Both the position numbers and the translations under genes were made by a program. A stretch of DNA of 64,000 bases. Origin: Spirochaetales bacterium. GTDB taxonomy: Bacteria > Spirochaetota > GWE2-31-10 > MWDO01. The notes beneath the pieces were generated by a model. The model was given only the letters and a program-made list of their open reading frames with translations. It did no database searches and was not told the origin of the DNA. Every line of letters begins with the position of its first letter. The stretch's first letter is position 1. The stretch covers positions 666-64,665 of the forward strand of contig JAFYAI010000016.1 in the NCBI GenBank assembly GCA_017540815.1, read 5' to 3'. Positions 7,283 to 63,111 of the stretch are shown piece after piece.

Positions 7283-8320
7283 TCATTTCAATTTCATGAA
7301 CGCAGTCATCGCTTCGATATATTTTCTCTGATGGAGCAGTAAAGCCAACTCTATAGCATTAGTCACATCTTTGGCATTGCACATTCCGTGACCGATAAGC
7401 ACAGTGCCATCCACTCCCAACAGCGGAGCTGCTCCGAAATATTTCGGTGTAACTTTACCCTTTATGCGTTCCTTGACTTTAGACCACAGATGGAAGACAG
7501 ACATCGCACTGGTCATAACTTTCTCTCCGAAGCCTTTATGCTTATCCGAAACAGATCCTGACAAAACTCCCATCAGGTATTTGATCATAGATTCGGCGAA
7601 TTTCAGCATTGTGTTGCCCAGCAATCCGTCACATACTACTATATCTGTCGAACCGTCCAATATATTATACGGCTCGACATTGCCGTTGAATATTACCTTG
7701 CCGATAGCAGCCTGTTTATTGAGATACGAGTATGCTTTCTTAATATAAGTCGTGCCTTTGTCTGCCTCTGTGCCCATATTGAGCAAGCCTATCCGAGGCT
7801 CGGCAAGACTGCTGCTTATAACAGAATGATACGCTACACCGAGTTTGGCATTCTGCAGCAGAGACTCTTCCGATACTTCGGGATTTGCTCCGACATCCAG
7901 CATCATAGTCTCTCCGCCGTCTTTGCGTGGAAATGACGCAGCCATAGCAGGACGCTTGATCCCCGGCAGATAGCCGAGATACAGGCATGCCGCCACAACG
8001 GTAGCTCCGGTATTACCCGGTGAAAAGAAAGCATCTATCGTCTTGTTTTTTAGCATTCGGCAGCCGATCACAACCGTGCAGTCTCTGCGTTTCCGCACAT
8101 CTGTCGGCTTCTCATCCATTCTGATAAAATCAGCAGTTCCGACAATCTTTACTCTTTTATCATTATCTTTAATAATGTGTGGGAATGACTCTAATATGCG
8201 ATTTTCGTTGCCGATGAGAGTAAGAGAAATATCCGGATCGAGCGCCAAAGATGCTAATGCACCGCGGACCATCTCCGCAAAAGGACGCTCGCCCGAATCA
8301 ACATCAATTCCGATATTCAA
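7283..8320 (-). CDS. plsX: Phosphate acyltransferase PlsX
   Basis: Full-length PlsX similarity. Conserved adjacency to rpmF. Confidence 0.93.
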   Translation of the reverse strand: MNIGIDVDSGERPFAEMVRGALASLALDPDISLTLIGNENRILESFPHIIKDNDKRVKIVGTADFIRMDEKPTDVRKRRDCTVVIGCRMLKNKTIDAFFSPGNTGATVVAACLYLGYLPGIKRPAMAASFPRKDGGETMMLDVGANPEVSEESLLQNAKLGVAYHSVISSSLAEPRIGLLNMGTEADKGTTYIKKAYSYLNKQAAIGKVIFNGNVEPYNILDGSTDIVVCDGLLGNTMLKFAESMIKYLMGVLSGSVSDKHKGFGEKVMTSAMSVFHLWSKVKERIKGKVTPKYFGAAPLLGVDGTVLIGHGMCNAKDVTNAIELALLLHQRKYIEAMTAFMKLK

Positions 8321-8326
8321 GGTAGA

Positions 8327-8512
8327 TTATGCCTCTGTAACCTGAACAACAGAATTGCCTTTGTAATAACCGCAATGTATACAAACCTTGTGAGGTGGTG
8401 TCAAGCCGCCGCACTCCGGGCATTTCGTCATACCAGGCAATGTCAGTTTCATATTGATGCTTCTGTGCATTCTCTTTCTTGATTTCGACGCTCTATGTTT
8501 TGGTACTGCCAT
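8327..8512 (-). CDS. rpmF: 50S ribosomal protein L32
   Basis: MAVPKHRASKSRKRMHR ... CPECG ... CIHCGYY zinc-ribbon L32. Confidence 0.9.
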   Translation of the reverse strand: MAVPKHRASKSRKRMHRSINMKLTLPGMTKCPECGGLTPPHKVCIHCGYYKGNSVVQVTEA

Positions 8513-41888: not shown

Positions 41889-41966
41889 AGCGGGATTATA
41901 GCAAAAGCGGTAAAAAAATCAAAGAATTTTTTATAATTTTTTGAAATAAAATCTAACCAAAAAACA

Positions 41967-42021: not shown

Positions 42022-43287
42022 ATGACCTATAATATAGAATTCCAAATTGCAGCTCTTGCATTCGCTATACTTATTACTGTCCATTTTTTCAGGAACCGAC
42101 GAGAATGGACAACAGACAGTAAGATTTTTGCAAATCTCGCAATATTCACCATATTTCTCACAATCGATGATATAATCTGTCCGATTCTGCTTGTAACGCC
42201 TGAGATAGATGTCGGTTGGAAACTTTTTTCAGGCAGACTGTATCTTATCCTGATGATCCAATGTATGACATCCCTTGTGCAATACACAATATGCGTTTCG
42301 TTGAATCAAGAAACTATTAGGGAAAAACTTTTCATTATAATTCGGATTGGTGCAGTTGTAATCGCCTTATTTACATTGTTCCTGCCGCTTCATTACGAAG
42401 GCGGAGAGGGAGCTCACATCTATGGCTATGCTCAGGATCTGCTATACATTATCGGCGGGCTGGTTGTATTCTTTGTCCTGATATTTGCAATCCTAAACAG
42501 AAAGAAAATCCCCAAAAATAAGATTATGCCTCTATATGCTTATGTAGTGATTGAGGGGCTTACCGCTCTTATCGAAAATCAGAATAAGGGGATCCTCCTT
42601 ACGAGCATTTCATTGGTTTTTGTATTGTTTCTGATCTACTTTACGCTGCAAGATCCAAAGATCAAAATGATAGAAGATCGTGACCGCAAACTTATGCAGA
42701 CAATTAATGAAATGCTCTTCACGCTTGCCCGTTCAGTGGATGCCAAAGATCACTATACGGCAGGTCATTCACTGCGTGTTGCAGAATACGCAAAACTTAT
42801 TGCCAAGAAACTGTCTTACTCACCGGAAAAGCAGATGATGATTTATCAGGCAGGACTTCTCCACGATGTAGGCAAAATCGGCATACCTGATGCAGTTCTG
42901 AATAAAAAAGACAGGCTAACTTATGAAGAGTATCTTCAGATAAAGAACCACACAACAATCGGTGCTGACATTCTCAAGAATACTGAAAGTTTCCCTGAAG
43001 CAGAGAATGTCGCTCATTATCATCACGAGAGATTTGACGGCAACGGCTACCCCGAAATGCTCAAAGGTTACGAGATCCCGGAGTCTGCCAGGATTACAGC
43101 AATCGCAGATACATTCGATGCTATGACATTGAAAAGAGTCTATCGTGAAAATATATATACCAAAGAAGAAGCTGCAGCTGAGATCAAAAGATGCAGCGGC
43201 AGCCAATTTGATCCGCAGATCGCACAAGTCTTTATCGATGCCATTCTTGCCGGCGAAGTTGATGAGATTATGAAGAAGTATGTGTGA
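42022..43287 (+). CDS. HD-GYP domain c-di-GMP phosphodiesterase with an N-terminal polytopic membrane sensor
   Basis: HD (LLHDVGK) and HHERFDGNGYP motifs. About 7 TM helices at the N-terminus. Confidence 0.85.
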   Translation: MTYNIEFQIAALAFAILITVHFFRNRREWTTDSKIFANLAIFTIFLTIDDIICPILLVTPEIDVGWKLFSGRLYLILMIQCMTSLVQYTICVSLNQETIREKLFIIIRIGAVVIALFTLFLPLHYEGGEGAHIYGYAQDLLYIIGGLVVFFVLIFAILNRKKIPKNKIMPLYAYVVIEGLTALIENQNKGILLTSISLVFVLFLIYFTLQDPKIKMIEDRDRKLMQTINEMLFTLARSVDAKDHYTAGHSLRVAEYAKLIAKKLSYSPEKQMMIYQAGLLHDVGKIGIPDAVLNKKDRLTYEEYLQIKNHTTIGADILKNTESFPEAENVAHYHHERFDGNGYPEMLKGYEIPESARITAIADTFDAMTLKRVYRENIYTKEEAAAEIKRCSGSQFDPQIAQVFIDAILAGEVDEIMKKYV

Positions 43288-43292
43288 TGTGT

Positions 43293-43333
43293 AAAAACTC
43301 CGAAAAAATCAAAGATTTTTTCGGAGTTTTTTG
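43293..43333. terminator. Bidirectional terminator hairpin. Member of the conserved-core hairpin family.
   Basis: aaaaactccgaaaaaatcAAAgattttttcggagttttttg. Confidence 0.7.
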
Positions 43334-43356
43334 AAGAATAAGTCTTATTCTTTCAC

Positions 43357-44081: not shown

Positions 44082-44133
44082 TTATAATTATAACAAAAAA
44101 TCCGAAAAAATCAATGATTTTTTCGGATTTTTT
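44082..44133. terminator. Terminator hairpin of the same family, with the conserved 5' flank ttataattataacaaaaaa
   Basis: aaaaaatccgaaaaaatcAATgattttttcggattttttg. Confidence 0.7.
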
Positions 44134-44172
44134 GAAACCTGTCAATCTTAGCTGTATTCCTTGTCTTTACCG

Positions 44173-46809
44173 TTAATGGTTGTTGTGCTCCTCTGCGACT
44201 TGACCAGGAGTTTTACCATCTCGTGCACCCTGTTCTATCTCTTTAATAGAAGGTTTAGTAAAATTCACATCACCATCAACATATTCATTCACAGCTGGAT
44301 TTGCAGGATAGCCATCTGCACTATACAGTATCCATAAAGCCATGCCAGCTGGCGCTCTTGATACTTCATCAGCAGACAAGTCACGTAAATCATATCCATA
44401 TGCGACAGCATCAAGACAAGCCCTATGTCCATCCTTCACAGCTTCTTTTCTTACAATAACAACAGGAAGGCCGTTTCCTTCTGGTAAATTTTGAGGAGCA
44501 GGACCTGCGATGTCGAGTACACCTACAGCATGAGTACCAATATAGCCATAACCAGTGGTATACATATCCACAAACTTAACATCAGAAAGATCTATCTCAT
44601 ACCGTATATTGAAAGCAGGCAAAAACACGCCAAATGACTCTTTATCTTGAATGGCTTGGCCGAGTTCATTAGACCAAAAATCATTAGGATTAGAATGCAT
44701 CGATAATTCATACTCTACAATTCTATCGATCTGAGACTGTTGCACTTTATCAAAATCAATCTTTGTACCATCATCTACAACACACCAGTTGCGTATATTT
44801 TCACAGCGATCATCTGAATGAGCGGCATACCAGGCAAGCAAGCCGGCAGGAAGTTTTGGACAGTCGGGATTCACTTCGTTGCCGTTGCCGGTATATATCG
44901 ATGGATAATCAGGAGTTCGGTAGCCATCGACATAATATCTTCCAAATACATCAATCTTCGATAAAGCACCAAGCTGATGATACTTTTCGATAATCTTGCC
45001 TATCAAAGAACAGTTTATAACCCAATTTATACCACTACCGCTATATGATTCTTTACCTCTATATGATCCCTGTTTGAACTCATCATCATTTATTCCAAAC
45101 ATCTCAACACCCCATAAGCCTGTTATATCAATCACAGGCAGCTGATCAGCAAAAGTAATAGAATCTATATCTAAGCCTAATAATTTCACAGCATAATCAA
45201 CATCAAGATTAGATACCGCTCCATCTCCACCATTATAACAATAATCATAGCCTACAAGTTTGAGTTTATTCCAGTCATCCACTCTCAGCGATGCACCTTC
45301 TTCCAACCAGAAGAGTCCTTTAAAATCAGAATGCCAGCGATAAACAAGATCTTGATAAATCGGTTCATATTCATCTGTCGTTCCTGCAATAACACTAAAT
45401 TCCGAATATTCCATCCACTGACTGTGAATATTTATCTCACCGGACAAACTCAATGTTCTGCCGCTCTCAACCTGAATTGAGTAAGCATACATATCACCAT
45501 GAAACATAGTCATACTATCAGATACCTGTAAACCTGATGCTAATACAAAATTAATACCCGGAATATATTCCAAGATTACCATATCATCCCGAATTCCATA
45601 TACTTTTTCACTTTCATAATCATAAAGAACCATATTAGTATAATCCCTCATAGAATTTAAAAAATCTAATGGACGAAGATGATGATACTCTCCTTTACAT
45701 TCATCAATCTCATAAAATCCATGCTGTCTTGTATAATCAATAAAAAAATCTATTATGATTTCCTGCTGATTCTTTCGTGTCCAAGCTGTATGACCAGAAG
45801 CACTATCCCCCATAGATAAGTCAGTCGGTTCATCCGGCACATCCAAGTGATAAACGACAGATTTCGGTATATCATCATATATCACACGCCCTGCACCTGC
45901 TTCAATCACTGCTTTTTTCAAAGCATAATAATCCATAATATCAAGGTCTGTTACACTATCAGCAACTCGTATTCGCACAAGATTATCTTTAACCAACTCT
46001 GCTGAAAATGTCGTTCCCTTACCTGTGTAAGTGATAATATAAGCATCATCAGGCGAGATAACTTTAATCGGCAGAGTGATATATACCCATTTCTCAGGAT
46101 AACTTTCAAATTTATATTTGATATAAACATTTTGTGTTCCCAACTTCGTCATATCAGGATCATCATATTCCAAAAATCCGGGATATTTTTGTTGAGATAC
46201 AGTTCCTTTCCAAGTAAAGCTATTTCCTTCCATTACATAATCGCTGCTTCTGTCACAGATGTCATAGACAAGCCATAACAGCGAAAACTCCTCTCCCGGC
46301 AAATATATCGATGAGAAAAACGGAGCATCCTCATGGATTCTGCCATAATATTGAGGTAAGTTGATGCTTATAGGCAGAGTTACAGAATACGGCTTATTCT
46401 GATATTGAAATGTCAGCACAACATTCTGAGTTCCTTTTTCAGCCATATTCGGTGCTGTATAGTCAAATGTTGTATCAGTATGCGACAACTCCTGCATAGT
46501 GTAGCCTGCATCATCATATATCGTAACACACAGTCCATCAAGGCTGAATGTCTCATTCTCGATATATTCCGTCTTAGGAAATGCAGTAATTACAGCAGTA
46601 AATTTTGATTCATCTATATCAGATTGAGAATTGCTTCCGCTATTGCTGTCGCTGCTGCTACTGCTGCTGTCATCACTGTTATTGCCGGAACTATTGCTGC
46701 CACCGCTTATTGTCGTTTCATTATTAGTGCTCCGCTCGATTCCATTAGGACAGCCGCACAGCACCGCCGCTATCACAGCTGCCGCAAAAATTAAATAAAA
46801 TTTTTTCAT
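44173..46809 (-). CDS. Large surface lipoprotein, 878 aa, with a Ser/Asn-rich linker. Function unknown.
   Basis: Lipobox-like LCGCP after a signal peptide. Low-complexity SGGSNSSGNNSDDSSSSSSDSNSGSNS segment. Confidence 0.6.
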   Translation of the reverse strand: MKKFYLIFAAAVIAAVLCGCPNGIERSTNNETTISGGSNSSGNNSDDSSSSSSDSNSGSNSQSDIDESKFTAVITAFPKTEYIENETFSLDGLCVTIYDDAGYTMQELSHTDTTFDYTAPNMAEKGTQNVVLTFQYQNKPYSVTLPISINLPQYYGRIHEDAPFFSSIYLPGEEFSLLWLVYDICDRSSDYVMEGNSFTWKGTVSQQKYPGFLEYDDPDMTKLGTQNVYIKYKFESYPEKWVYITLPIKVISPDDAYIITYTGKGTTFSAELVKDNLVRIRVADSVTDLDIMDYYALKKAVIEAGAGRVIYDDIPKSVVYHLDVPDEPTDLSMGDSASGHTAWTRKNQQEIIIDFFIDYTRQHGFYEIDECKGEYHHLRPLDFLNSMRDYTNMVLYDYESEKVYGIRDDMVILEYIPGINFVLASGLQVSDSMTMFHGDMYAYSIQVESGRTLSLSGEINIHSQWMEYSEFSVIAGTTDEYEPIYQDLVYRWHSDFKGLFWLEEGASLRVDDWNKLKLVGYDYCYNGGDGAVSNLDVDYAVKLLGLDIDSITFADQLPVIDITGLWGVEMFGINDDEFKQGSYRGKESYSGSGINWVINCSLIGKIIEKYHQLGALSKIDVFGRYYVDGYRTPDYPSIYTGNGNEVNPDCPKLPAGLLAWYAAHSDDRCENIRNWCVVDDGTKIDFDKVQQSQIDRIVEYELSMHSNPNDFWSNELGQAIQDKESFGVFLPAFNIRYEIDLSDVKFVDMYTTGYGYIGTHAVGVLDIAGPAPQNLPEGNGLPVVIVRKEAVKDGHRACLDAVAYGYDLRDLSADEVSRAPAGMALWILYSADGYPANPAVNEYVDGDVNFTKPSIKEIEQGARDGKTPGQVAEEHNNH

Positions 46810-46835
46810 TACATCCTCCTATGAAAATACAATCT

Positions 46836-46928
46836 CTCCTAATCTTATTTGCTTAGAAGAGGAATCATTTATGTTGTTCTGTCAAGAACAACATAAATGG
46901 AGTATACTCCATTTAAAAATTTTTTGAT
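46836..46928 (-). repeat. Conserved leader element copy 2 upstream of the 878-aa lipoprotein gene
   Basis: tttgcttagaagaggaatcatttatgttgttcTGTCAAgaacaacataaatggagtatactccattt. Differences from copy 1 are compensatory within both palindromes. Confidence 0.8.
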
Positions 46929-47776
46929 TTTTGGGCGTGATTCATCACGCCCGTACATACAAAAAACTCTCACATCATTTAAGTGATATTGTACGTACGG
47001 GTTCGATTTATCGAACCCAAACAATATATATTTGTTTGATTAGAAATAGAATTAAAAGAAAAAACAACTTGTTCTCATTCGAGACCTCCACAACTGATTT
47101 TAGCTATAAAAAACCCCGCATCAACAAATGTTCACTCAGGCAGCAGAATACTCAGTTGTGGAGAAATACTCATCAGCCTCATTTATAGATGCGAGAGTTT
47201 TCCAAAGAATTCCCCACATATAATGAGACCACATCTGAATATTCGCAACATTGACCGGCAAGGAGTGAATCTCACCTGTCAATGAATTTTTATAACATAA
47301 CAAAATAATATGTCATAATTTTGAATTTGTCAAGCGAAAAAAATTCCATTTGCATTTATTCCATTGGAAGACAAAGTTTTCGCTCTCAATCAACCTGCGA
47401 TGATTGTTGTTGCAGATCCACCTGTCTCATCATCGGAACATACTTCATACAGCGGCATTTCTGCAGAATGCAGCAACCCAAATCAAAATCACATCGAGAC
47501 CGCCAAATCGCTTTTCGGCATTCTATCAAACGATATGACATTAGAAGAAGCTAAGGCAGAGAGATTATACCAAATCTAAAGTACCGGTGCTAAATCCTGC
47601 TGATTTTTTGGAATTACTAAAAGCAAATATTACAAAATAATAAAAAATTACAATTTTTTAATTGAAAATTTTCCAAAATATGTTATTATAATAGTGAAGG
47701 AATAGATTCCTCGACTTCGCTCGGAATGACATATTTTAGTCATTCAAGATAGCACGAGTAAAAAGGACAATAAAAA

Positions 47777-51327: not shown

Positions 51328-52890
51328 TTATGGATTACTCATTCTTATAAGTCCGGTCTGATCAAATACAAGTGCCGTCTTGGTTATATGCTTCCCGCTT
51401 GCAATATATGGCTCAGCATACTTTTTATCCTCGATCTGCTTCAACGCCGCCGCTGCCAACTCGTCAGCATTACCCTCACGGCAACATTTCAGCTCGAAGA
51501 TATACACCTTATCTTCCAGTTCCACGACAATATCCGCCCGCCCCAAAAGTGACACTCTCTCCGCTGTCGTGCGGTAACTGGTCAGTGAGAACATCATAAA
51601 CAATATATTGCGATACATATCTTCGTTATAATTCTTATCCTGCATATACGGCAGAGATGCAACAGCAGAGCGGATCAGAGTTTCCAGCTCAGCCATATCG
51701 GCATTCTCCAATGCACTGCGGAATTGCTGAATCGTACCTGTCAGTTTAGTTTCCCTAATAGGCGTAATCCGACGCATTAGGTGCTTATAAAAACCTGTCC
51801 GTACTTCAACATTAGGAAAGTCAAGCGTATAGAACCGGCTTTTTTTATCATAACTTTTTAGTGTCAGATAACCTGTCTGATACATAATCGGCAAAAAATT
51901 ATCATCTGTAGGATCGAAACTGTCGAAATCACTCTCAGCAGCCACAACATCTTCCACAAAATCTGATATGTCAGCTTCCTGATGATTAAGAATGTTCAAA
52001 AGAGACTTAGGAGTGCCGCTGCCAAACCATTTACTCGAAAATTCATTGTCAGCAAAAGCATTTATCAGACTGAACGGGTTATACACATCTGTCATCGACT
52101 TGCTGAAATGATACCCGTCATAAGTCAGTTTCAGTTTATCAAGACACTCCCGACGGCTCATCTCATTGGCAGCCGCCATATCATCGATTCTGTCCGAAAA
52201 AACAGTCAGCAGTTCTTCCTTTGTAATGCCACATATCGCAGAATATTGGTCACTCATACTAATATCACGAATGTGATTCAATCCGCTGAAAATATTCAGG
52301 TGCGGCACGCGGGTAATACCTGTCAGGAATATGAATTTCAGATATTCATCGCAGCTTTTCAGCACGCTGTAGAAATCACGAATCATTGTGCGATTGACAT
52401 TCTCGACATCGGTATATAACGCATCAAGGATGGGCTTATCATACTCATCAATGAGAACGACAACATTTTCATCGGCAGCTTCTTTCGCAGCGATAATCAC
52501 ATTCTTGAATCTGACATCATAACTGGTTGTCTCAGCCGGAGTTATATTATATTTCCGCTCATATCCGATTAGGACATCGTTAATCACAGCCCTCAGTTTC
52601 TCATTTGATTCATAACCGCTCAGTCCGAAATCAATGCGAATGACAGGATATTTCTTCCACTCTTCCTCCAACTTGGCAATCTTGAGACCTTCAAACAACT
52701 CCTTCCGCCCGTTGAAATAAGCATCCAATGTTGAGACGAGCAAACTCTTGCCGAATCGGCGCGGACGAGAGAGGAAATAAACCGTTCCGTTGTGAACCAA
52801 ATCATAAATCAAATCGGTCTTATCTGCATAAACGCAGTCATTATCGCGAAGTTTCTCAAATGTCTGTATGCCAAGCGGCAGTTTTTTCAT
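51328..52890 (-). CDS. Predicted AAA-ATPase N-domain plus PD-(D/E)XK (PDDEXK_9) C-domain protein
   Basis: Family-typical GKSLL N-region and a C-terminal ELK nuclease-fold motif (IFELKCC). Confidence 0.85.
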   Translation of the reverse strand: MKKLPLGIQTFEKLRDNDCVYADKTDLIYDLVHNGTVYFLSRPRRFGKSLLVSTLDAYFNGRKELFEGLKIAKLEEEWKKYPVIRIDFGLSGYESNEKLRAVINDVLIGYERKYNITPAETTSYDVRFKNVIIAAKEAADENVVVLIDEYDKPILDALYTDVENVNRTMIRDFYSVLKSCDEYLKFIFLTGITRVPHLNIFSGLNHIRDISMSDQYSAICGITKEELLTVFSDRIDDMAAANEMSRRECLDKLKLTYDGYHFSKSMTDVYNPFSLINAFADNEFSSKWFGSGTPKSLLNILNHQEADISDFVEDVVAAESDFDSFDPTDDNFLPIMYQTGYLTLKSYDKKSRFYTLDFPNVEVRTGFYKHLMRRITPIRETKLTGTIQQFRSALENADMAELETLIRSAVASLPYMQDKNYNEDMYRNILFMMFSLTSYRTTAERVSLLGRADIVVELEDKVYIFELKCCREGNADELAAAALKQIEDKKYAEPYIASGKHITKTALVFDQTGLIRMSNP

Positions 52891-52914
52891 GGAATGTACC
52901 TCTATATAATTATA

Positions 52915-52966
52915 ACAAAAAACAGAAAAAAGTCAAAGACTTTTTTCTGTTTTTTGAGATGAGAGG
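52915..52966. terminator. Terminator hairpin of the conserved-core family with the tataattataacaaaaaa flank
   Basis: aaaaaacagaaaaaagtcAAAgacttttttctgttttttg. Confidence 0.7.
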
Positions 52967-53007
52967 ATACTCTTAACAGAACTTCTTTTGTCCTCACATT
53001 TTTTGTT

Positions 53008-53796
53008 TCATTCCAATATCCCGTCTGTATCATCTTCCGCCAACGGCAACTTAGACAAATAATCCTTCAGTTTATTCGCCATAGGCAAAAATGTTGCCGC
53101 TGTAATGCTTCCGGAAAATATACCGCCTACGATAGGGATAATCTTGCTTATTGTTTTGCCGAAACTCTGCTTGGTCAGACTAATCCCTAACCATTTTGCA
53201 ATCTGTTTCGCGATATTATAGACCCCCATTTTCGACAATGCCATTCTCGGAATTCTTTTGGCTGCCTGCTCCGCCAAACTGACAGAAATCTTGCTTATTG
53301 CAGCCGCTGCTCCTTTTGCCCCTGACATAACACCGATAAACAAAGTCAGCAATCCCAAAAATTCATCGCTCGGCTGTTCTTCATCGAAACTCGGCCAGCC
53401 ATACAAAAAAGCAAGTTTCTGAGTGACAACAATAACATTATAATAAAATTGTGCAAGATCAGCAGGGATCGTTCCTGCCATCCACCAGCCGCCCGGTAAA
53501 CCTGTAGCAAATGAAATTCCGGTCACAATGATTGTATGATTTTTGATTACTGATTTGGCAATCTTATCAATATCCTCTTTTTTGGCGGGAGAGTTTTTTA
53601 TCCCGTTTCTAATGATTTCCTGAACATCATCTTCTTTATAATACTTTATAAGTTCTTTTCTTAAGAAAGCACTTCTGTTTACCTTAGCTCCCGGTATTTT
53701 CAAAGCCGTAGACAAAACCCCGTTCCATACAGTCACCGCTTTTTCATCATTGATGTTATAATCTTCATTTAATTCTAATTCTTCTTCGTTGTTCAT
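53008..53796 (-). CDS. EcsC-like protein
   Basis: Central Gly-rich TGISFATGLPGGWWMAGTIPADL region and overall size resemble the EcsC family. This is a from-memory family call. Confidence 0.5.
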   Translation of the reverse strand: MNNEEELELNEDYNINDEKAVTVWNGVLSTALKIPGAKVNRSAFLRKELIKYYKEDDVQEIIRNGIKNSPAKKEDIDKIAKSVIKNHTIIVTGISFATGLPGGWWMAGTIPADLAQFYYNVIVVTQKLAFLYGWPSFDEEQPSDEFLGLLTLFIGVMSGAKGAAAAISKISVSLAEQAAKRIPRMALSKMGVYNIAKQIAKWLGISLTKQSFGKTISKIIPIVGGIFSGSITAATFLPMANKLKDYLSKLPLAEDDTDGILE

Positions 53797-53799
53797 TAG

Positions 53800-54363
53800 T
53801 TACTCCTCTGATTTAATAAATTTCCATTCAATTTGATATTGTTTGCCAGTCAACTCACCTATCTGCCGAACATAATTCTCTATAATCTTCATTGCTCGTG
53901 TCTGAGCATTCTGCATTAGAGAATGATTCTCCTGTAATGTTGTTATGCAATTATTACGAGCTTTTTCAAGTGCATCTACTTGATCTTTTGAAGATATACG
54001 AGCTTTAAACAGACCTTCAATGAAACCAGGCATTTCTGACAAAACTTCCATAGAAGGTATAGATATTTTAGGCTCTCCGATAATCTTTGCATTTGGAATA
54101 GTGACTATCACTTTTGATTTATTAACTTCAATATTAACAGATGAAATATCTATTCCAAGTTTGACAGTTGACTCGTACTCAATCCACTGCTGTAAACCGT
54201 TTTTCTCAATCGTGACAAGATTACGATAATAACATTCCTGTGTTGCCAGATCGCAAACCTGTCGTATATCTATTAAATTCGGACTTATATCCGACTGTTG
54301 TTTACATGATATAAGCAAAACAAAAAAAACGCAAAATAATATAGTCCTTCTTATATATATCAT
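53800..54363 (-). CDS. Lipoprotein, paralog B of a tandem pair. Possibly DUF4230-like.
   Basis: Signal plus lipobox LISC. Shares VIVTIPNAKI / GIDISSVNIEV blocks with the upstream paralog. Confidence 0.5.
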   Translation of the reverse strand: MIYIRRTILFCVFFVLLISCKQQSDISPNLIDIRQVCDLATQECYYRNLVTIEKNGLQQWIEYESTVKLGIDISSVNIEVNKSKVIVTIPNAKIIGEPKISIPSMEVLSEMPGFIEGLFKARISSKDQVDALEKARNNCITTLQENHSLMQNAQTRAMKIIENYVRQIGELTGKQYQIEWKFIKSEE

Positions 54364-54977
54364 AATGACTCTCCTTCTACAACAAAGTTATACGATGAAC
54401 TCTTTTTAAATGGCATGCACAATGCCTTAATAGTCTCTTTGGCATTTTCATTTGCCAAATATAGTATTTTCTGATTATTTATCACTTTAGAACGCAGATC
54501 ATTTCGACAAATACTGAGATGTTTCTTAATATTCGGGTTTTTCTTATATTTATTCTTGAAATACAGGAACTTCATCGTTTCTGCTTCAGTACTGACATTA
54601 TATTCAAGAATTTTGGCATTAGGGACATCTACATAAATTGTATTTCCTTCAACTTGAACCGTAGGTGGTTCATCAATACCAGCTCTGACAATTCCCCTAT
54701 ATGAAATTGCATATCGGCGATCCTTTTCTGTTTCAGTAGGTACATCAGTCTCATCAGCAGACACATCTACAGCGATGTCTTCCCAATAATCATCAATATG
54801 TGGTGTTACAATTACATAACTATTGTATACATATTCTATAGTGTGTAATTCTTTCACATTTAAAACTTTCTCCAATGTTAGTTTAGTTGTTATCGAATAA
54901 TTTTTGCATCCGATTAAACAAAACAGAAACATTAATACAATAATAAATTTGATACTTATCGATTTTTGTCTATTCAT
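54360..54977 (-). CDS. Lipoprotein, paralog A of the tandem pair
   Basis: Signal plus lipobox LIGC. TIYVDVPNAKILEYNVS / GIVRAGIDEPPTVQVEGN blocks. 4-bp overlap with paralog B. Confidence 0.5.
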   Translation of the reverse strand: MNRQKSISIKFIIVLMFLFCLIGCKNYSITTKLTLEKVLNVKELHTIEYVYNSYVIVTPHIDDYWEDIAVDVSADETDVPTETEKDRRYAISYRGIVRAGIDEPPTVQVEGNTIYVDVPNAKILEYNVSTEAETMKFLYFKNKYKKNPNIKKHLSICRNDLRSKVINNQKILYLANENAKETIKALCMPFKKSSSYNFVVEGESL

Positions 54978-54991
54978 ATTCTACCCCCATT

Positions 54992-55426
54992 TTACTCATC
55001 CTCACCTATATGTGTCATCTTCAACTTTTTATCACATTCGTCGATTGTTTCATCACAATAGCGAATCTCTTTCAAAATATTTCTAATATCATCATCAATA
55101 ATCAGATCCGTTTGATTGGGATTATTATTTAGAATCTCAAACATCATTTCTCCCAACATTTCCATAGCCTTTTGCCTTTTGGTTTCTGCATTTTTCTTCT
55201 CAATTCTAACAGGAACAACCTTTGCTTCATTTCCAAGCCATTTCAATCCTTTCTTACCGGCTTCCCCAGCTTTTTTTCCTATTTCTTTAGCTTTTTCTCC
55301 GGCTTTCTTTGCTCCTTCTTTGAACTTTTCTTTCATTTCAGATTCCTGTTTCTCAGGCTCTTTCTTCTCCTTTCCTAAGAAAGGAAACCACCCTTTCTTT
55401 TCTTCCTTCATTCCTTCTTTACCCAT
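54992..55426 (-). CDS. Lys/Glu-rich small protein
   Basis: Low-complexity KEEKK/GKKAGE repeats. No TM helix. Confidence 0.4.
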   Translation of the reverse strand: MGKEGMKEEKKGWFPFLGKEKKEPEKQESEMKEKFKEGAKKAGEKAKEIGKKAGEAGKKGLKWLGNEAKVVPVRIEKKNAETKRQKAMEMLGEMMFEILNNNPNQTDLIIDDDIRNILKEIRYCDETIDECDKKLKMTHIGEDE

Positions 55427-55465
55427 AATAGTATCTCCTTATTTATAATTTATAATTGTTCATTA

Positions 55466-55975
55466 TCACTGCCGTCTCTTCCTCTTATCCATCTCCATCA
55501 CACGCCATTCCGTTTCGGTAAGACCATACACATCGGGAAGCTCAGGATTAGCAGGATGCCATTTTTCTTTATGCTTTATCCTAACCGCAAATTCTTTAAA
55601 CTCATCTTTAATATCTCCATCAGGCATGTAAGATTCTTTACTCCAACGATGAAAATCCATAGCAATATTGCCCACATAAAACGGCTCAAAACGATGTAAG
55701 TCCCCCAAAATCTTTATCGCATCCATAGGTTCATAGCAAAGCAATCTGATATGATTTCCGATACCTTCCTGCGAATCACGAAATATCAGCTCCAATACGA
55801 CTGCATCATCATCAGCATACTCACCGTCATCATAATGATAACATAATGCAGTCTCTATATTGCTGACAATTTCATGCGTTAGATATTCTGTATCCAAACC
55901 ATCAAGAACATCTGCTCCATTGAGAAAAAACAAACTTTCATTCTGTTCTTCCCAATCATATTTATTAAGCCTCAT
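55466..55975 (-). CDS. Acidic hypothetical protein, 169 aa
   Basis: First gene of the AT-rich five-gene cassette. No motif recognised. Confidence 0.4.
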   Translation of the reverse strand: MRLNKYDWEEQNESLFFLNGADVLDGLDTEYLTHEIVSNIETALCYHYDDGEYADDDAVVLELIFRDSQEGIGNHIRLLCYEPMDAIKILGDLHRFEPFYVGNIAMDFHRWSKESYMPDGDIKDEFKEFAVRIKHKEKWHPANPELPDVYGLTETEWRVMEMDKRKRRQ

Positions 55976-56158
55976 ATTTTTACCTCGCTTTCAAATAATA
56001 CTTCAACCTTCTATTATAACACACATTCACCATTCAAATGTCGTTTTCAAAGCGACAAATGCACAAAAAAAGCTCTTGACTTGTTTAGAGTCAACAATTT
56101 GTCAAATAAAAAAAAGATTAATATTGTTTATTGCCAATTTTTATGATATAATAAAATT

Positions 56159-56470
56159 ATGGATATAACTCTGATACAATCTTTATGTAAACAACGCAAG
56201 ATAAAATGGTCTTTGCATTCATCCGAAAAAATGGCAGAGCGAGGAATAATGCGTTCCGATGTAATTAATTGTATAGAGTATGGTGAAATCATCAAAGATT
56301 ATCCTGATGATACTCCAAATCCAAGTTATCTGATATTCGGTCAAGATTTACGAAGTAAGATTCTGCATACAGTTGTCGGATATAGTAAAGAAACCTTGTT
56401 TATAATAACAGCTTATTATCCGGACACAAGTATATTTGAATCGGATTTACGAACAAGAAAAAAGAGGTGA
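56159..56470 (+). CDS. DUF4258-family protein (toxin-like)
   Basis: HSSEKMAERGI…GEIIKDYPDD…LHTVVGY…IITAYYPD matches the DUF4258 signature. Confidence 0.7.
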   Translation: MDITLIQSLCKQRKIKWSLHSSEKMAERGIMRSDVINCIEYGEIIKDYPDDTPNPSYLIFGQDLRSKILHTVVGYSKETLFIITAYYPDTSIFESDLRTRKKR

Positions 56471-56703
56471 ATATGTGCTTTTACTGCAAAAACGAAAAAA
56501 CTAAAAATTCCATCACAACATATATGGTAGACTTAAAAGACTGCATTATCATTATAAAAAATGTTCCGTGTGAAGAATGTACTCAATGTGGCGAGAAATA
56601 TATCAGTGACGAAGTAATGGAACGAATCGAAAAAATTATTCGACAGGTTCGTTCAATTGCAGGAGAAGTTTTTGTCACAGATTATACGAAAAAAATCGCA
56701 TAA
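56467..56703 (+). CDS. YgiT-type (MqsA N-terminal-like) zinc-finger protein
   Basis: CFYCKNEK…CEECTQCGEKY four-Cys zinc ribbon. ATGA overlap with the DUF4258 gene. Confidence 0.65.
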   Translation: MNMCFYCKNEKTKNSITTYMVDLKDCIIIIKNVPCEECTQCGEKYISDEVMERIEKIIRQVRSIAGEVFVTDYTKKIA

Positions 56704-56739
56704 GAAAAAAGAGATTTCCTTTTAGGAAATCTCTTTCCC

Positions 56740-59235
56740 TTACACTATCCCGGTAACCTTATAATCTTTTGCTTCAACTGCTGTTTTAAGCACATCGTCA
56801 GCGACATCTTTGCTCAACTCGACAATCGCCGTACCTGCAGTATGGCTTGGCGTTGCAAGTGTTACTCCGTCGATAGCCTCCAATGCTTTTTTGACAGTGG
56901 CTTCACAGTGTCCGCACATCATCCCTTCGATCTTAAGTGTTTTTGTCATAGTAGAAGTCTCCTTATTGTCTGTTAGATTTTTATCAGAGTTATCATCAGG
57001 TGATGATTTTCCATTTTTGTTAAATTTCAGCAGGTTAAGCCGCAGTGCATTGCTGACTACACAGAAACTCGACAGGCTCATTGCTGCCGCACCAAATGCC
57101 GGAGTAAGCACAATGCCGAACAGCGGATACAATGCCCCTGCCGCCAACGGAATGCCGATAATATTATAGATAAATGCCCAGAAGAGATTCTCATATATAT
57201 TGCGAAGCACGGCACGCCCGATCCTGACAGCTGCTGCGACATCAGTCAGCGAATCACGCACCAGCACAACATCTGCGGCATCTTTGGCAACATCCGTTCC
57301 GGCACCGATTGCAGCACCGACATCGGCAGCGGTTAAGGCAACGGCATCATTGATACCATCACCGACCATCATCACACGACCTGTCTGCTGTATTTCCGCC
57401 ACGATCTTGGCTTTCTGATCCGGCAGCACTTTGCCGAATATCTTATCTGCCTTGATCATATTACCGACTTTATCGGCAGCAGCCTGATTGTCACCTGACA
57501 GCAGACATACACTTAGTCCCATACTGTGCATACGCGATACTGCGGCGATACTGTCAGGTTTCAGCTCATCCGAGAATGTGATAATACCTATCGGCTGATC
57601 TCCAACAGCGACTGCGATAAGTGTCTGCCCGGCAGTGCTTATTTTGCTCAATGTCTCTTCTAATGCTGTCTTTGCATTGTCGGCTGTTATCTCCGCCAAG
57701 ATCATATCTGCACTGCCGACAGTTATCGGAGTTCCATTCTGAGAGACAGCTCTAATCCCATGCCCTGCGGTCTCTGTGATATTGCTGACATCCTGAGCCG
57801 TCACATTCTGAGCTTCGGCATAACGGCAGACAGCCACCGCCAGCGGATGAGAACTGCTCCGCTCCAGAGAGTAAGCCGCCTGCACAATTGTGAGGCTATC
57901 CGCATCCCCGATCGGATAAATGCCGGTAATCTCAGGCTGCCCCTTCGTCACAGTGCCTGTCTTATCAAGTATCACATTCCGCACGCGACCTGTCAGTTCC
58001 AGACTCTCCGCCGTCTTGAACAGGATGTTGTGACGAGCCGCAACGCCGCTGCCGACCATGATAGCAACAGGTGTCGCCAGACCCAATGCACACGGGCAAC
58101 TGATAACCAGCACGCATATACCGCGAGCCAATGCAAAGCCGACAGTCTGACCTGCGAAGAGCCATATCAGAGCGGTTATAATCGCAATCATCGTCACAAT
58201 AGGCACGAAGATGCCGCTCACCCTGTCAGCGACTCTGGCAATCGGAGCTTTGGCAGCTGCGGCATCTCCTACCATAGCTATAATCTTGGACAATGCAGTA
58301 TCACTGCCGACTTTGTCGGCACGAATATGGATCACGCCATTGAGATTGATCGTTCCGGTATAAACCTGTGCCCCCTCGGACTTATTCACAGGCATACTCT
58401 CGCCGGTCAAGGCAGACTCGTTGATGCTTGTCATTCCGTGAATGACAACCCCGTCTGCACTGACATTCTCACCGGGGCGGATGACGATCTCATCACCGAC
58501 AGACAGTTCCTCTATCGGAATAATCAGTTCCACACCGTTCCTGATAACAGACGCATTCTGCGGAGTCAGGCTCGCCAACGCACGAAGTGCATCCGTAGTG
58601 CGGCCTTTTGCAATCGCTTCAAGCAATTTGCCGACAGTGATAAGCACGAGTATCATACCGGCAGACTCGAAATAATAATCCGATGACGAGAGATGCTTGT
58701 CCATTGACAGCATTATCAGAATGACAGTGCTGTAGATATATGACACTCCAGAGCCCAACGCCACAAGAGTGTCCATATTGGGAGACAAGTGCATAATGCC
58801 TTTTATGCCATTGATGAAAAATCTGCGGTTGATAATCAAAATAATCCCGGATAATATCATCTGGATAATGCCAAGCGTCACTGGATAATCTTTGAGACCA
58901 AAGTCAGGAGCTCCGAACATCAGTCCCATCCCGAAATACATCAGTACCACCAAAACCACTCCGGAACTGATAAGACGCATAACAGCATTACGCACTTCGT
59001 CGGATTGAGTCGATTGTGTCTCATCTTGCTTCTTTGCAGAAGGCACAGCCGCATCATAACCTGCCTTGCGCACAGCCTGTATTACCCTGTCCGGCGGCAC
59101 ATCACCATCGACTGTCATGCTGTTAGTCAGCAAATTAACAGAGCAGTCTGTTACCCCATCCACTTTTGAGACCGCCTTCTGCACTCTGGCCTGACAGGCG
59201 GCACAACTCATACCCATTACATTATATTTAATCAT
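56740..59235 (-). CDS. copA: Copper-translocating P1B-type ATPase CopA with an N-terminal HMA domain and an extra C-terminal HMA (CopZ-like) domain fused in frame
   Basis: GMSCAACQ, CPC (SCPCALGLATP), DKTGT, GDGINDA, C-terminal MMCGHCEATVKKALE. Confidence 0.92.
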   Translation of the reverse strand: MIKYNVMGMSCAACQARVQKAVSKVDGVTDCSVNLLTNSMTVDGDVPPDRVIQAVRKAGYDAAVPSAKKQDETQSTQSDEVRNAVMRLISSGVVLVVLMYFGMGLMFGAPDFGLKDYPVTLGIIQMILSGIILIINRRFFINGIKGIMHLSPNMDTLVALGSGVSYIYSTVILIMLSMDKHLSSSDYYFESAGMILVLITVGKLLEAIAKGRTTDALRALASLTPQNASVIRNGVELIIPIEELSVGDEIVIRPGENVSADGVVIHGMTSINESALTGESMPVNKSEGAQVYTGTINLNGVIHIRADKVGSDTALSKIIAMVGDAAAAKAPIARVADRVSGIFVPIVTMIAIITALIWLFAGQTVGFALARGICVLVISCPCALGLATPVAIMVGSGVAARHNILFKTAESLELTGRVRNVILDKTGTVTKGQPEITGIYPIGDADSLTIVQAAYSLERSSSHPLAVAVCRYAEAQNVTAQDVSNITETAGHGIRAVSQNGTPITVGSADMILAEITADNAKTALEETLSKISTAGQTLIAVAVGDQPIGIITFSDELKPDSIAAVSRMHSMGLSVCLLSGDNQAAADKVGNMIKADKIFGKVLPDQKAKIVAEIQQTGRVMMVGDGINDAVALTAADVGAAIGAGTDVAKDAADVVLVRDSLTDVAAAVRIGRAVLRNIYENLFWAFIYNIIGIPLAAGALYPLFGIVLTPAFGAAAMSLSSFCVVSNALRLNLLKFNKNGKSSPDDNSDKNLTDNKETSTMTKTLKIEGMMCGHCEATVKKALEAIDGVTLATPSHTAGTAIVELSKDVADDVLKTAVEAKDYKVTGIV

Positions 59236-59442: not shown

Positions 59443-60810
59443 TTACATCTTCGGCAACGCATCGAATCCTTTCTGCAGATCCGCATCAGTCGGGATATAA
59501 TCCGTCATTGTGCCGTTGTTGTATGCTTCATAAGCCTTGAGGTCAAAGTAACCTGTGCCTGTCAATCCGATAAGGATCGTCTTAGCCTCCCCGGTCTCTT
59601 TGCACTTCATCGCTTCATCGATAGCGACTTTGATAGCGTGGCTGCTCTCAGGTGCAGGCAGGATGCCTTCCACTCTTGCGAATGTAACAGCCGCCTTAAA
59701 TACATCAGTCTGCACTGCGGATCGTGCTTCCATCAGACCGTCATCAAATAATTGTGACAGAACCGAACTCATACCGTGGTATCGCAGACCGCCTGCATGA
59801 TTAGCCGATGGGATAAAGTCAGCACCCAAAGTGTACATCTTAGCCAGCGGACAAACGCGACCTGTATCACAGAAGTCATACGCATACTTACCGCGTGTCA
59901 GACTCGGACAGCTGGCCGGCTCTACAGCGATGATCTGATAATCTTTAATTCCGCGGATCTTATCAGTCATAAACGGAGCGATCAATCCGCCGAGGTTAGA
60001 CCCGCCTCCGGCACATCCAACGACTATATCCGGTGAGATACCGTATTTATCCATCGCTGCTTTAGCTTCCAGACCAATGACTGACTGGTGGAGCAGGACC
60101 TGACTGAGCACACTGCCCAGCACATATCTGTAGCCTTCGGACTTAACAGCTGTCTCAACAGCTTCGGAGATCGCACAGCCCAAACTGCCGGTAGTTCCCG
60201 GATGCTCAGACAGGATCTGTCGTCCTACATCCGTTGTATCAGACGGCGACGGAGTTACGGAAGCACCATAAGTCCTCATAACTTCACGGCGGAACGGTTT
60301 CTGCTCATAAGAGCACTTAACCATATAGACTTTGCAGTCCAATCCGAAATACGAGCAAGCCATCGACAATGCTGTTCCCCACTGACCAGCACCGGTCTCT
60401 GTGGTGACACCTTTCAGTCCCTGCTTCTTAGCATAATATGCCTGTGCGATAGCAGAGTTGAGTTTGTGGCTGCCGCTTGTGTTGTTGCCTTCAAATTTGT
60501 AATAGATCTTAGCCGGCGTGCCTAATTTCTTCTCCAAGAAGTATGCCCTCACAAGCGGTGACGGACGGTACATTTTGTAGAAATCGAGTATCTCCTGCGG
60601 AATCGTAATAAACTCATCGGTATTATTCAACTCCTGCTTCACTAACTCGTCGCAGAATACGCCTCGCAACTCATCGAATGTCATCTCCTTATGAGTGCCG
60701 GGATTCAGCAGCGGTGCCGGTTTGTTCTTCATAACAGCTCGCATGTTCAGCCAAGCTGTCGGCAACTCCTTTTCTTCCAGATAGATTTTGTACGGAATAT
60801 TTTTGTCCAT
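59443..60810 (-). CDS. trpB: Tryptophan synthase beta chain-like PLP enzyme (TrpB2-type, stand-alone)
   Basis: GSHKLNSA…ETGAGQWGTALSMACSYFGLDCKVYM matches the TrpB PLP-lysine region. 455 aa with an N-terminal extension typical of TrpB2. Confidence 0.85.
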   Translation of the reverse strand: MDKNIPYKIYLEEKELPTAWLNMRAVMKNKPAPLLNPGTHKEMTFDELRGVFCDELVKQELNNTDEFITIPQEILDFYKMYRPSPLVRAYFLEKKLGTPAKIYYKFEGNNTSGSHKLNSAIAQAYYAKKQGLKGVTTETGAGQWGTALSMACSYFGLDCKVYMVKCSYEQKPFRREVMRTYGASVTPSPSDTTDVGRQILSEHPGTTGSLGCAISEAVETAVKSEGYRYVLGSVLSQVLLHQSVIGLEAKAAMDKYGISPDIVVGCAGGGSNLGGLIAPFMTDKIRGIKDYQIIAVEPASCPSLTRGKYAYDFCDTGRVCPLAKMYTLGADFIPSANHAGGLRYHGMSSVLSQLFDDGLMEARSAVQTDVFKAAVTFARVEGILPAPESSHAIKVAIDEAMKCKETGEAKTILIGLTGTGYFDLKAYEAYNNGTMTDYIPTDADLQKGFDALPKM

Positions 60811-61011
60811 TTTACCTTGACCTCCTATGCGTCAATTATTAAGATTAATACAAGAATATCATTTTTGCGGATTATTGTCAATCAGAAATATGAAAAATTA
60901 TATATAAACAACTTCCTTAATTTGTATTTTTTTCCGGCAATCTGTAAAAAATATATAAATTAGGAAGATTTAAGTGTTTGAGAAATGTTATTGGTGTGTA
61001 AGTAAAATCAA

Positions 61012-61740
61012 TTACTCATATTTCATCGCGACAAGTCCGGTCAGATCAAAGACAAGTGCTGCTTTGATAATCTTCTTCCCGCTCATATCATAACGATCGG
61101 CATAATGCTTTTCGTCAATCTGACTCAATGCCTCAGCTGCTCGTTTGTCAGGATCTGTTTCCAATGAACATCTGCGGCTGTCGCATCCATGCACTGCAGA
61201 TGCTGCCGACATCCGTGTCGTCAGTATTTTATATTCAAATATATATACCTTGTCAGATAATTCTACAACAGTGTCGGCTCTGCCGCAGAGTGAGACCGAC
61301 TCGCTTGTCGTAGTGAAACCTGTCAGCGTGAATACCATGTGCAGCACATTGCGGTACATATCTTCGCAGACGGATTTGTCTGTCAAATACGGCAGATTGG
61401 CGATACTCGCTTTGATCAGTCCTTCCAGCCGTGCAAAGTCACATTCACGAAGTGCATTGCGAAAATGATATGCGGTTAAGCCTAATCCGTCATTCGTTAT
61501 CGGCGAAATCTTCGGCAGCAGAGACTCATAAAAACCGGATCGGACTTCATAATTCGGCAGACCGAGAGTATAGAGTTTCGATTCTTTATCGTAGCTCTTT
61601 ATCGTAAGATAGCCGGACTGATAAAAAAGCGGCAAAAATCCGACTGCATTCGGCTCAAAGTTATCAAATGCAGACTCCAAAACGGAAGAAGTCTCGACAA
61701 GGTTGGATATATACTCATTATGCTGATTAAAATACCACAC
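61012..61740 (-). pseudogene. 3' fragment, about the last 220 aa, of a paralog of the AAA-ATPase/PDDEXK_9 gene at 51328-52890. The N-terminal ATPase part is absent.
   Basis: Aligns with residues about 300-520 of the intact paralog (…YQSGYLTIKSYDKESKLYTL…IFEYK…ALVFD). No upstream coding continuation. Confidence 0.7.
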
Positions 61741-61914
61741 CGCAGATACATGGATTATGCAGGCAAAGAGTTTTTTCAGTAATATACATAAAAACTTATA
61801 TAAATTAGCAAGTTTCTAAGTTATTTACTTAAAAATTATCAATAAATAAATACTTTTTCAGTGTTTTATTTAAAAACTATTGACAAAGATGAAGTTTTTC
61901 AGTAAAATGTCAGT

Positions 61915-63111
61915 ATGAACAATGAAAACATAAACAGACAAAGTTATATCAATCAACTGGATAAATATCGCAATATACAATTAGTCAAAATATTGTCAGG
62001 CATTCGCCGCTGCGGTAAATCAACACTGCTGGAGATGTATAAACAACATCTGCTGCGAAATGGCATACCCTCAAGTCACATTATTCACAGAAACTACAGT
62101 GCTATCCAATATGAAGATTGGACTGCCAAACAGATGTTTGACGACATCATGTCGGGAATGCACGATGCTGATACGCACTATCTGCTGCTCGATGAAGTGC
62201 AGGAGATAAACGGTTGGGAGCGGACTGTCAATACGCTGTTGGAGACCAACAAAACCGATATATATATAACAGGCTCCAATTCCCGTCTTATGTCGTCAGA
62301 ACTGTCCACATACCTGACCGGTCGGTATGTTCAGATACCGATATACACACTCTCATTCCGTGAATATCGTGATTTCTGCGGTGCCAATCAAACTCGCAAT
62401 AATCTGTTCCAAAAATATCTGCGGTAGGGAGGCTTCCCGATTACTGCTATTGGCAATTTTGACGACAACTCGGTTTATCAGATTGTCGAAGATATATTCG
62501 GCTCGGTTGTAACGAAAGATATTTCCAAGCGGCATAATATCAGCAACACTGCATTGTTTGATAAAGTCGTCAGATTTGTGCTGGAGAATGTCGGCAAGAA
62601 TTTCTCCACTAACTCTATCGTGAAATTTCTTAAAGGTCAGGGGCGGTCTATCAATCCTGAAACAGTCTATAACTACCTTGATTGGCTGGAGAGAGCGTTT
62701 GTAATCTATCGCTGCAACCGCTACGATATACAAGGTAAAAATGTTCTCAAAACTCAGGAGAAATACTACCTCGCAGACAGCAGTCTGAAATATGCTTTGA
62801 TGGGATATAATCCGACATCAGCAGCATCTATGCTGGAGAATATTGTCTACCTTGAACTGTGCCGACGAGGTTATGAAGTCTATACCGGCAAAGACGATAC
62901 TCGCGAGATTGACTTCGTTGGAGTTCGTCAGAATGACAAAATATACATACAGGTCTGCCGTCAGCTGCCTGAGAATTCCGATCGTGAGATAGGCAACCTT
63001 AAACTAATCAAAGACAATTATCCGAAATATGTCTTGACCTTAGATGAAACTGCTATCGGCACTGATGACGGCATTATTATTGAAGATATTAGAGATTGGT
63101 TGGAGAGGTAA
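61915..63111 (+). pseudogene. AAA_14 / DUF4143 ATPase paralog interrupted by a single in-frame TAG at 62425-62427
   Basis: ORFs 61915-62427 and 62554-63111 share one frame. Translating through gives …YLR*GGFPITAIGNF… where intact family members have YLRYGGFP, so TAG replaces a Tyr codon. Confidence 0.7.

Follow-up and report, generated by a model that had tools for sequence, protein, structure and literature searches.

A putative five-gene operon in a spirochete islet combines a DUF4230 lipoprotein pair with an EcsC-superfamily protein

Do five small genes that lie together in a bacterial chromosome make up one system, and what might such a system do? We addressed this question for a locus at positions 53008 to 55975 of a 64,000-nucleotide stretch of DNA from a gut or rumen bacterium of the Spirochaetales (GenBank assembly GCA_017540815.1, contig JAFYAI010000016.1), which we call the window. 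The locus consists of five minus-strand genes, here named A to E in the direction of transcription. An initial annotation, made from the sequence alone, had proposed it as an uncharacterized system of envelope-associated or immunity type. We established the anatomy of the operon, the families to which its products belong, the rule by which C and D are paired, the exchange of genes in the middle of the cassette, and a recurrent adjacency of DUF4230 pairs and EcsC-type genes. Tentatively, we read the locus as an accessory module at the membrane that may serve in defense and in which E acts together with a membrane-anchored partner that can be exchanged. Neither DUF4230 nor the EcsC superfamily, both widespread in bacteria, has a known function, and PDC-S30, the family that E matches, is a candidate in PADLOC, a widely used defense-prediction database.

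Organization of the operon

All five open reading frames were present and tightly packed on the minus strand, as first described. Gene A (55466 to 55975) encodes an acidic cytoplasmic protein of 169 amino acids whose family is very rare and whose core is predicted to be a PH-like beta-sandwich. Gene B (54992 to 55426) encodes a Lys/Glu-rich protein of 144 amino acids without a hydrophobic segment and was found only in five-gene versions of the locus. The next two genes encode lipoproteins: C (54360 to 54977; 205 amino acids; lipobox LIGC) belongs to an upstream or C-type subfamily of DUF4230, and D (53800 to 54363; 187 amino acids; lipobox LISC) belongs to a downstream or D-type subfamily. The product of gene E (53008 to 53796) is an all-helical, weakly hydrophobic EcsC-superfamily protein of 262 amino acids and a member of PDC-S30. 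A and B are separated by 39 nucleotides (nt) and B and C by 14 nt. Of the two 4-bp overlaps originally reported, we found only the one between C and D, as a 3-nt gap separates D from E. A Shine-Dalgarno-like motif precedes each of the five start codons.

The promoter and leader region of the minus strand (55976 to 56073) was read from the sequence. It carries an extended -10 element (TGTTATAAT, 56021 to 56013), a GAGG ribosome-binding site, and an operator-like palindrome, TGTCG-N9-CGACA (56057 to 56039), which may be the operator for some regulator. To place the locus among its relatives, we compared the window with fetched contigs and loci, labeled L001 to L178. The 94-nt leader was 91 to 94% identical in L082, L105, and L089, where the A protein is 44% identical or deleted. 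Conservation of the leader exceeds that of the A coding sequence (44% protein identity), and we infer that the leader functions as a promoter. At the other end, a minus-strand hairpin (52916 to 52956) lies directly after E. It has a 19-bp stem with a T-run after it, carries TTGACT in the loop region, is followed by TTGTTATAAT, and was the sole minus-strand terminator-like site in the scanned interval from 52700 to 56800. The prediction of a downstream terminator from a repeat family was borne out, and this hairpin probably terminates the operon and doubles as a promoter element for the next gene. A search of Rfam at a permissive threshold returned nothing credible. Given the close spacing of the genes, the Shine-Dalgarno-like motif before each start, and the single terminator-like site after E, A to E look like one operon that runs from the extended -10 promoter to the hairpin.

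We compared the base composition of the cassette with that of its surroundings. Its GC content is 0.358 versus 0.425 for the window, within the lowest 7% of same-size windows, and the flanking copA (copper-type P-type ATPase) and epimerase genes are at 0.49 to 0.50. The cassette as a whole is therefore more AT-rich than its neighbors, as had been proposed, but this does not apply evenly to the genes (A, 0.39; B, 0.36; C, 0.31; D, 0.33; E, 0.40). C and D are the most AT-rich of the five, whereas E is near the window average. Other AT-rich stretches of the window lie at 45000 to 47500 and 60500 to 62250 (GC, 0.33 to 0.38), so that low GC is not specific to the cassette. The window is matched by a 168-kb metagenome scaffold, and among named relatives, metagenome-assembled Spirochaetales genomes are the closest. 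The operon lies in a small, low-GC chromosomal islet between the copA-type and epimerase genes, and this islet varies between strains, which agrees with the idea of an accessory locus.

The DUF4230 pair and the exchanged middle segment

We found that C and D both belong to Pfam family DUF4230 (PF14014), for which no function is known. Their scores, 44.6 bits (2e-11) for C and 84.4 bits (1.1e-23) for D, pass the gathering cutoff of 27. By inspection, both proteins have a lipobox after an N-terminal hydrophobic segment (...FCLIGC at residues 18 to 23 of C and ...VLLISC at residues 15 to 20 of D), and the lipobox Cys is present in the consensus of the D-family alignment. The initial annotation had called C and D clear paralogs. 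This is so at the profile level, where hhalign related the two families with a probability of 99.7% (E, 7e-27; 19% identity), but BLASTP found only 24% identity between the two proteins (E, 0.003, in a tiny database). By this comparison, C and D are ancient paralogs and not the products of a recent duplication. The motif C-x-LATLECYYHN (residues 37 to 48 of the window D) is nearly invariant in the D-type subfamily and absent from the C-type subfamily. Its two conserved cysteines, C37 and C44, could be linked by a disulfide or could bind a metal or ligand. A profile search of PDB sequences with D gave nothing significant, and D had no match in PADLOC. PADLOC did match C to PtuB, but the match was weak and partial (17.8 bits, 54 residues), and we judged it spurious.

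To determine how constant the pairing of C and D is, we took a census of D relatives. A word-index homolog search had returned one match for A and two for D, and we used an exhaustive search and a pattern-based metagenome scan instead. For D, the scan gave 148 relatives and 80 loci that were kept, which group into 42 clusters at 80% identity. In 66 of the 80 loci, the gene immediately before the D-type gene is of C type; 10 more loci are truncated, which leaves 66 of 70 informative cases. The commonest spacing between the two genes is the 4-bp overlap seen here. In L135, an AAA-ATPase_like/PDDEXK_9 gene has been inserted between C and D. Most of the approximately 42 lineages have the C-D pair without A, B, or E, and pairs also occur beyond spirochetes, in contigs with Firmicutes-type neighbors (SpoIIID). 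Both proteins are most likely lipid anchored outside the cytoplasmic membrane. Their genes nearly always form a tandem pair with translational coupling, and the two proteins therefore most likely act as a heteromeric complex. In the literature that we searched, the family is named only in passing, and the few papers that name it deal with a single Streptococcus mutans gene, for which no phenotype is confirmed.

We then asked how often all five genes occur together. The full order was found in only three close contigs, namely, the window, L088 (97% nucleotide identity), and L105 (D, 64% identical). This does not fit the initial proposal of a coherent five-gene system, as C-D mostly occurs elsewhere without A, B, or E, and E occurs without A to D in all of the 80 other genomes examined. 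In contrast to the middle genes, the ends of the cassette are retained. L082 and L105 share A (98.6% nucleotide identity) and E (93%) but have unrelated middles, that of L082 being a single gene for a 346-amino-acid protein with two or three transmembrane (TM) segments and a coiled coil. In L089, the 91-nt leader (94.5%) and E (79%) are retained, only 18 codons of A remain, and the middle encodes a 282-amino-acid multi-TM protein and a 149-amino-acid lipoprotein. Within this lineage, the promoter, A, and E stay constant at the flanks, and the segment in between is exchanged from strain to strain. In the L082 protein, ICQLALLE and KHGVDLKDV line up with DUF4230 motifs; hhalign gave a probability of 4% for this relationship, and there was no Pfam match.

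An EcsC-superfamily gene lies directly beside the C-D pair in 5 of the 42 D clusters, in four arrangements. The order is C-D-E in L001, L088, and L105 and also in L137, where the neighbor matches EcsC weakly. It is E-C-D in L176 and L178, and the neighbor in L176 is again a weak EcsC match. In L177, C-D is followed by a canonical EcsC gene (PF12787; 41 bits versus a cutoff of 30.4). The rough chance expectation is about 0.04 loci if each genome has about one EcsC-type gene. Because the adjacency is far above this value, we concluded that the link between C-D and EcsC-type genes is real but facultative. The initial annotation would have been countered by homologs that are scattered, unlinked, and of housekeeping type; this is so in part, as E and C-D are scattered, usually unlinked, and often among housekeeping genes, but the C-D/EcsC adjacency recurs in four independent arrangements. 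Taken together, the cassette is a lineage-specific patchwork of three units with separate histories: C-D, E, and A and B.

A and B are both confined to a few spirochete contigs. A has a pI of 4.7, with 37 Asp/Glu and 20 Lys/Arg residues, and 45% of the residues of B are charged, consistent with the first description of these products as acidic and Lys/Glu-rich. An exhaustive search of 1.84 billion proteins gave five representatives of the A family. A hidden Markov model (HMM) built from B matched in L001, L088, and L105 only. Neither A nor B had a credible match in Pfam, NCBIfam, PHROGs, or PADLOC, and a profile search of PDB sequences with A gave nothing significant. A distant homolog of A adjoins a C-D pair in L095 to L097, in a different gene order and without E. 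Another A homolog, in L092 to L094, lies near Abi_2, DUF3658, DUF1232, and a MORN/GH-E toxin with an ankyrin protein. The A remnant of L089 (1264 to 1330) is in frame (MRRILYRNIEMDKRKRRQ) and retains the start and the conserved basic C-terminal tail. In L088, a 98%-identical A copy (8001 to 8489) ends in ...PDVWSYRNGMACDGDG versus ...PDVYGLTETEWRVMEMDKRKRRQ, and this different C-terminal end suggests a frameshift or an assembly error near the 3' end.

Gene E and the possible role of the module

E matched the PADLOC HMM for PDC-S30 over nearly its full length (E value, 1e-90; 301.7 bits; residues 19 to 256 against profile positions 8 to 248 of 268) and that for PDC-S29 less strongly (2.7e-14). 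The statement that the cassette matches no described system is thus true of experimentally characterized systems but not of this candidate. PADLOC candidates were nominated on their location in defense islands. PDC-S30 is a single-gene candidate that is related to PDC-S29, and the homologs of E resemble it in that they mostly stand alone and have a patchy, cross-phylum distribution that includes plasmids; E differs here in that it is the last gene of a five-gene operon and is not solitary. NCBIfam also matched E to IspE, with E values of 0.01 to 0.09 that are far below the cutoffs, and we treated these matches as spurious.

E had been described as EcsC-like. Consistent with this, 4 of 21 E homologs matched EcsC (PF12787) weakly (best E value, 3.3e-4), the plasmid homologs are annotated "EcsC family protein" in RefSeq, and the neighbor in L177 exceeds the family threshold. 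E itself, however, had no Pfam EcsC match at an E value of 1 or below and did not reach the gathering threshold of 30.4 bits. In Bacillus subtilis, EcsC has no known role and is encoded with membrane machinery, the ecsA and ecsB ABC transporter genes of ecsABC. We found no ecsA/ecsB-type genes in or beside the cassette. Because both the Pfam match and such adjacent genes are lacking, E is best placed, by sequence, as a distant sister clade within the EcsC superfamily and not as a member of the curated family.

An AlphaFold2 model of E built with 59 sequences is all-helical (pLDDT, 80; pTM, 0.81). The protein has two marginally hydrophobic helices rich in Gly, Ala, and Ser and no signal peptide, and GLPGG and QKL-YGW are invariant motifs of its family. 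Most likely, E lies on or within the membrane at its cytoplasmic face. With two lipoproteins and this membrane-associated helical protein, the cassette agrees with the envelope association that was first suggested, and we found no direct support for the suggested immunity-type module.

A protein search gave 571 homologs of E, and we located 474 genome loci. They are spread over Spirochaetota, Verrucomicrobiota, Chloroflexota, Bacteroidota, Burkholderiales, and others. Plasmids carry relatives as well (36, among them 6- to 20-kb plasmids of lactic acid bacteria), as do one Enterococcus phage and four IMG/VR contigs. One copy on a Lactococcus plasmid adjoins a type I restriction-modification system and an integrase. 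Most homologs have no conserved partner. MgsA in Bacteroidales and an ABC permease in termite-gut Treponema were considered as system partners of E; we attribute both to lineage synteny instead. As judged from these homologs, E is a horizontally mobile, usually stand-alone accessory gene.

How, then, might the module work? According to the reading that we tentatively favor, E would act from the cytoplasmic side together with a membrane-anchored partner on the extracytoplasmic side; this partner would be exchangeable and in our locus would be the two lipoproteins C and D. A would be a cytoplasmic adaptor or regulator. The module would protect or perturb the envelope under attack, most plausibly by phage. 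The physical interaction of E with its partner, the membrane topology of E, and any defense role are what we infer in this reading. It is rather unlikely, in our estimate, that the model can be extended to a new kind of transmembrane sensor-effector module, in which the DUF4230 pair and its alternatives are exchangeable sensor cassettes for an EcsC-like effector at the cytoplasmic face, in an envelope-triggered phage defense or abortive infection. If true, DUF4230 and the PDC-S30/EcsC clade would each gain a first function.

Several results weigh against the cooperation of E with an exchangeable partner. Genes like A, B, C, or D were beside E in 0 of the 80 loci from other genomes, as determined by tblastn and family HMMs, and about half of the E homologs have no operonic neighbor. 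The neighbors that exist are not enriched in membrane proteins (10 of 47 upstream and 14 of 42 downstream, against a background of 24%), and we therefore rejected a general rule by which E has a variable membrane partner. In a census of 147 neighbors from 37 genomes, few were of defense type by raw counts (PDC-S01, DRT reverse transcriptase, AbiEi, PDC-S31, PDC-M42C, HEC-03A, and ParE), and most were housekeeping genes. Similarly, most C-D pairs lie among housekeeping genes and small regulators, such as ECF transporter components, ApbE, SpoIIID, and MerR or Xre. Profile and model searches of the PDB found no solved structural relative of E and hence no hint of a biochemical activity, and the structural model of A, with its PH-like beta-sandwich core, is of modest confidence. 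The literature searched contained no experimental test of PDC-S30, which is named there only in PADLOC output lists.

The main rival explanation, which we consider somewhat unlikely, is simple juxtaposition at a recombination hotspot. In this case, C-D would serve general envelope maintenance, E would be an independent mobile gene, and A and B would be lineage-specific fillers, all on a shared transcript without a joint function. E and C-D each occur overwhelmingly without the other, they differ in GC content (0.40 versus 0.31 to 0.33), and E stays put while the middle genes change. Consistent with a hotspot, a toxin-antitoxin (TA) pair and an AAA-ATPase_like/PDDEXK_9 gene, the latter absent from this site in L088, have also entered the islet. 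Juxtaposition does not readily account for EcsC-type genes beside C-D in four independent arrangements, including E-C-D and that of L177, far above chance, or for homologs of A that accompany E in L082 and C-D in L095 separately. Exchange at the locus could also be explained by surface or envelope variation, in which strain-specific cassettes are swapped to vary phage receptors or antigens and E and A are mere recombination arms. The three unrelated middles, all membrane anchored between flanks of 91 to 98% identity, are what such a locus would contain. However, C-D is ancient and widely conserved, also beyond spirochetes, which argues against a fast-evolving surface antigen, and DUF4230 lipoproteins are not known to be surface exposed. 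We regard this explanation as improbable.

A dedicated anti-phage or immunity system that requires all five proteins is, in our view, equally improbable. The membership of E in the PDC-S30 candidate family and the position of an AT-rich operon next to a TA pair would fit such a system. In addition, the literature searched names EcsC-like (PF12787) genes once, in a list of putative partners that share an operon with the JukA sensor (bioRxiv 10.1101/2022.09.17.508391). Juk, in which JukA acts with JukB or other partners, recalls our locus in that a constant component is combined with exchangeable partners, as the constant flanks are here with a swappable middle; the likeness is in layout only. 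A requirement for all five proteins is difficult to reconcile with a five-gene form confined to three closely related contigs, with the absence of B elsewhere, and with L089, which keeps E although A has shrunk to 18 codons. Moreover, A, B, and D lack PADLOC matches, that of C to PtuB being, in our judgment, spurious, and none of the D relatives is in a viral contig. Finally, the cassette could be an orphan immunity-gene cluster of a polymorphic-toxin system, with A as the small acidic immunity protein. A is indeed small and acidic, and its homolog in L092 to L094 lies near Abi_2, DUF3658, and the MORN/GH-E toxin with an ankyrin protein. That connection comes from one type of neighborhood, the fold prediction for A indicates a generic PH-like sandwich and not a known immunity fold, and the window has no toxin gene in or beside the cassette. 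We consider an orphan immunity cluster very improbable.

What would follow depends on whether E and C-D are functionally linked. If they are, a membrane-based accessory or defense mechanism is indicated; if they are not, the locus is a recombination hotspot that gathers small accessory genes. Our results offer handles on both families: in this clade, DUF4230 proteins occur in fixed heteropairs of a C-type and a D-type member, the pairs recur beside EcsC-type genes whatever the order, and the natural cassette-swap series, in which the promoter, A, and E stay the same while the middle takes three membrane-protein forms, could reveal the partner needs of E. The DUF4230 and EcsC literature that we searched describes neither the heteropair rule nor the DUF4230-EcsC adjacency nor the cassette series.

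Neighboring elements of the islet

Upstream of the cassette, a divergent TA-like pair had been noted, and family searches confirmed it. The two plus-strand genes (56159 to 56703) overlap by 4 bp and encode a DUF4258 protein (7.5e-25) and a YgiT/MqsA-type zinc-finger protein (1.3e-13). They are likely a type II TA pair and are conserved in L088. The pair is not part of the cassette: it is on the opposite strand, and neither family was found among the C-D or E neighbors in the census tallies returned.

Downstream of E, a strain-specific insertion has placed an AAA-ATPase_like and PDDEXK_9 gene (51328 to 52890, minus strand). L088 lacks the gene at this site, and hairpin-promoter elements lie on both sides of it in L001. 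Genes of this family also adjoin DUF4230 pairs in L133 and L174, as well as in L135, where the gene separates C from D.

The hairpin after E belongs to a family with a perfect AT-rich pattern, CAAAAAA..GAAAAAAnTCnTTGAyTTTTTTC..TTTTTTG, followed by TTATAAT. Copies lie at 52916 to 52956, approximately 1680 to 1745, 41890 to 41950, 43280 to 43340, and 44085 to 44150 of the window and at 12470 to 12520 of L001. The five window copies that fit the core pattern compare with 0.01 expected. Because the loop region holds a TTGAC/T hexamer that resembles a -35 element and a -10 element follows the stem, each copy looks like a combined intergenic terminator and promoter.

A gene for a DUF1232 protein (about 138 amino acids) followed by one for a multi-TM protein (about 201 to 207 amino acids) was found near the E homologs of L083 to L087 and near the A homolog of L092 to L094. 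The DUF1232 proteins of the two sets are 45% identical, and the two genes may be another small mobile membrane module of the same islet kind.

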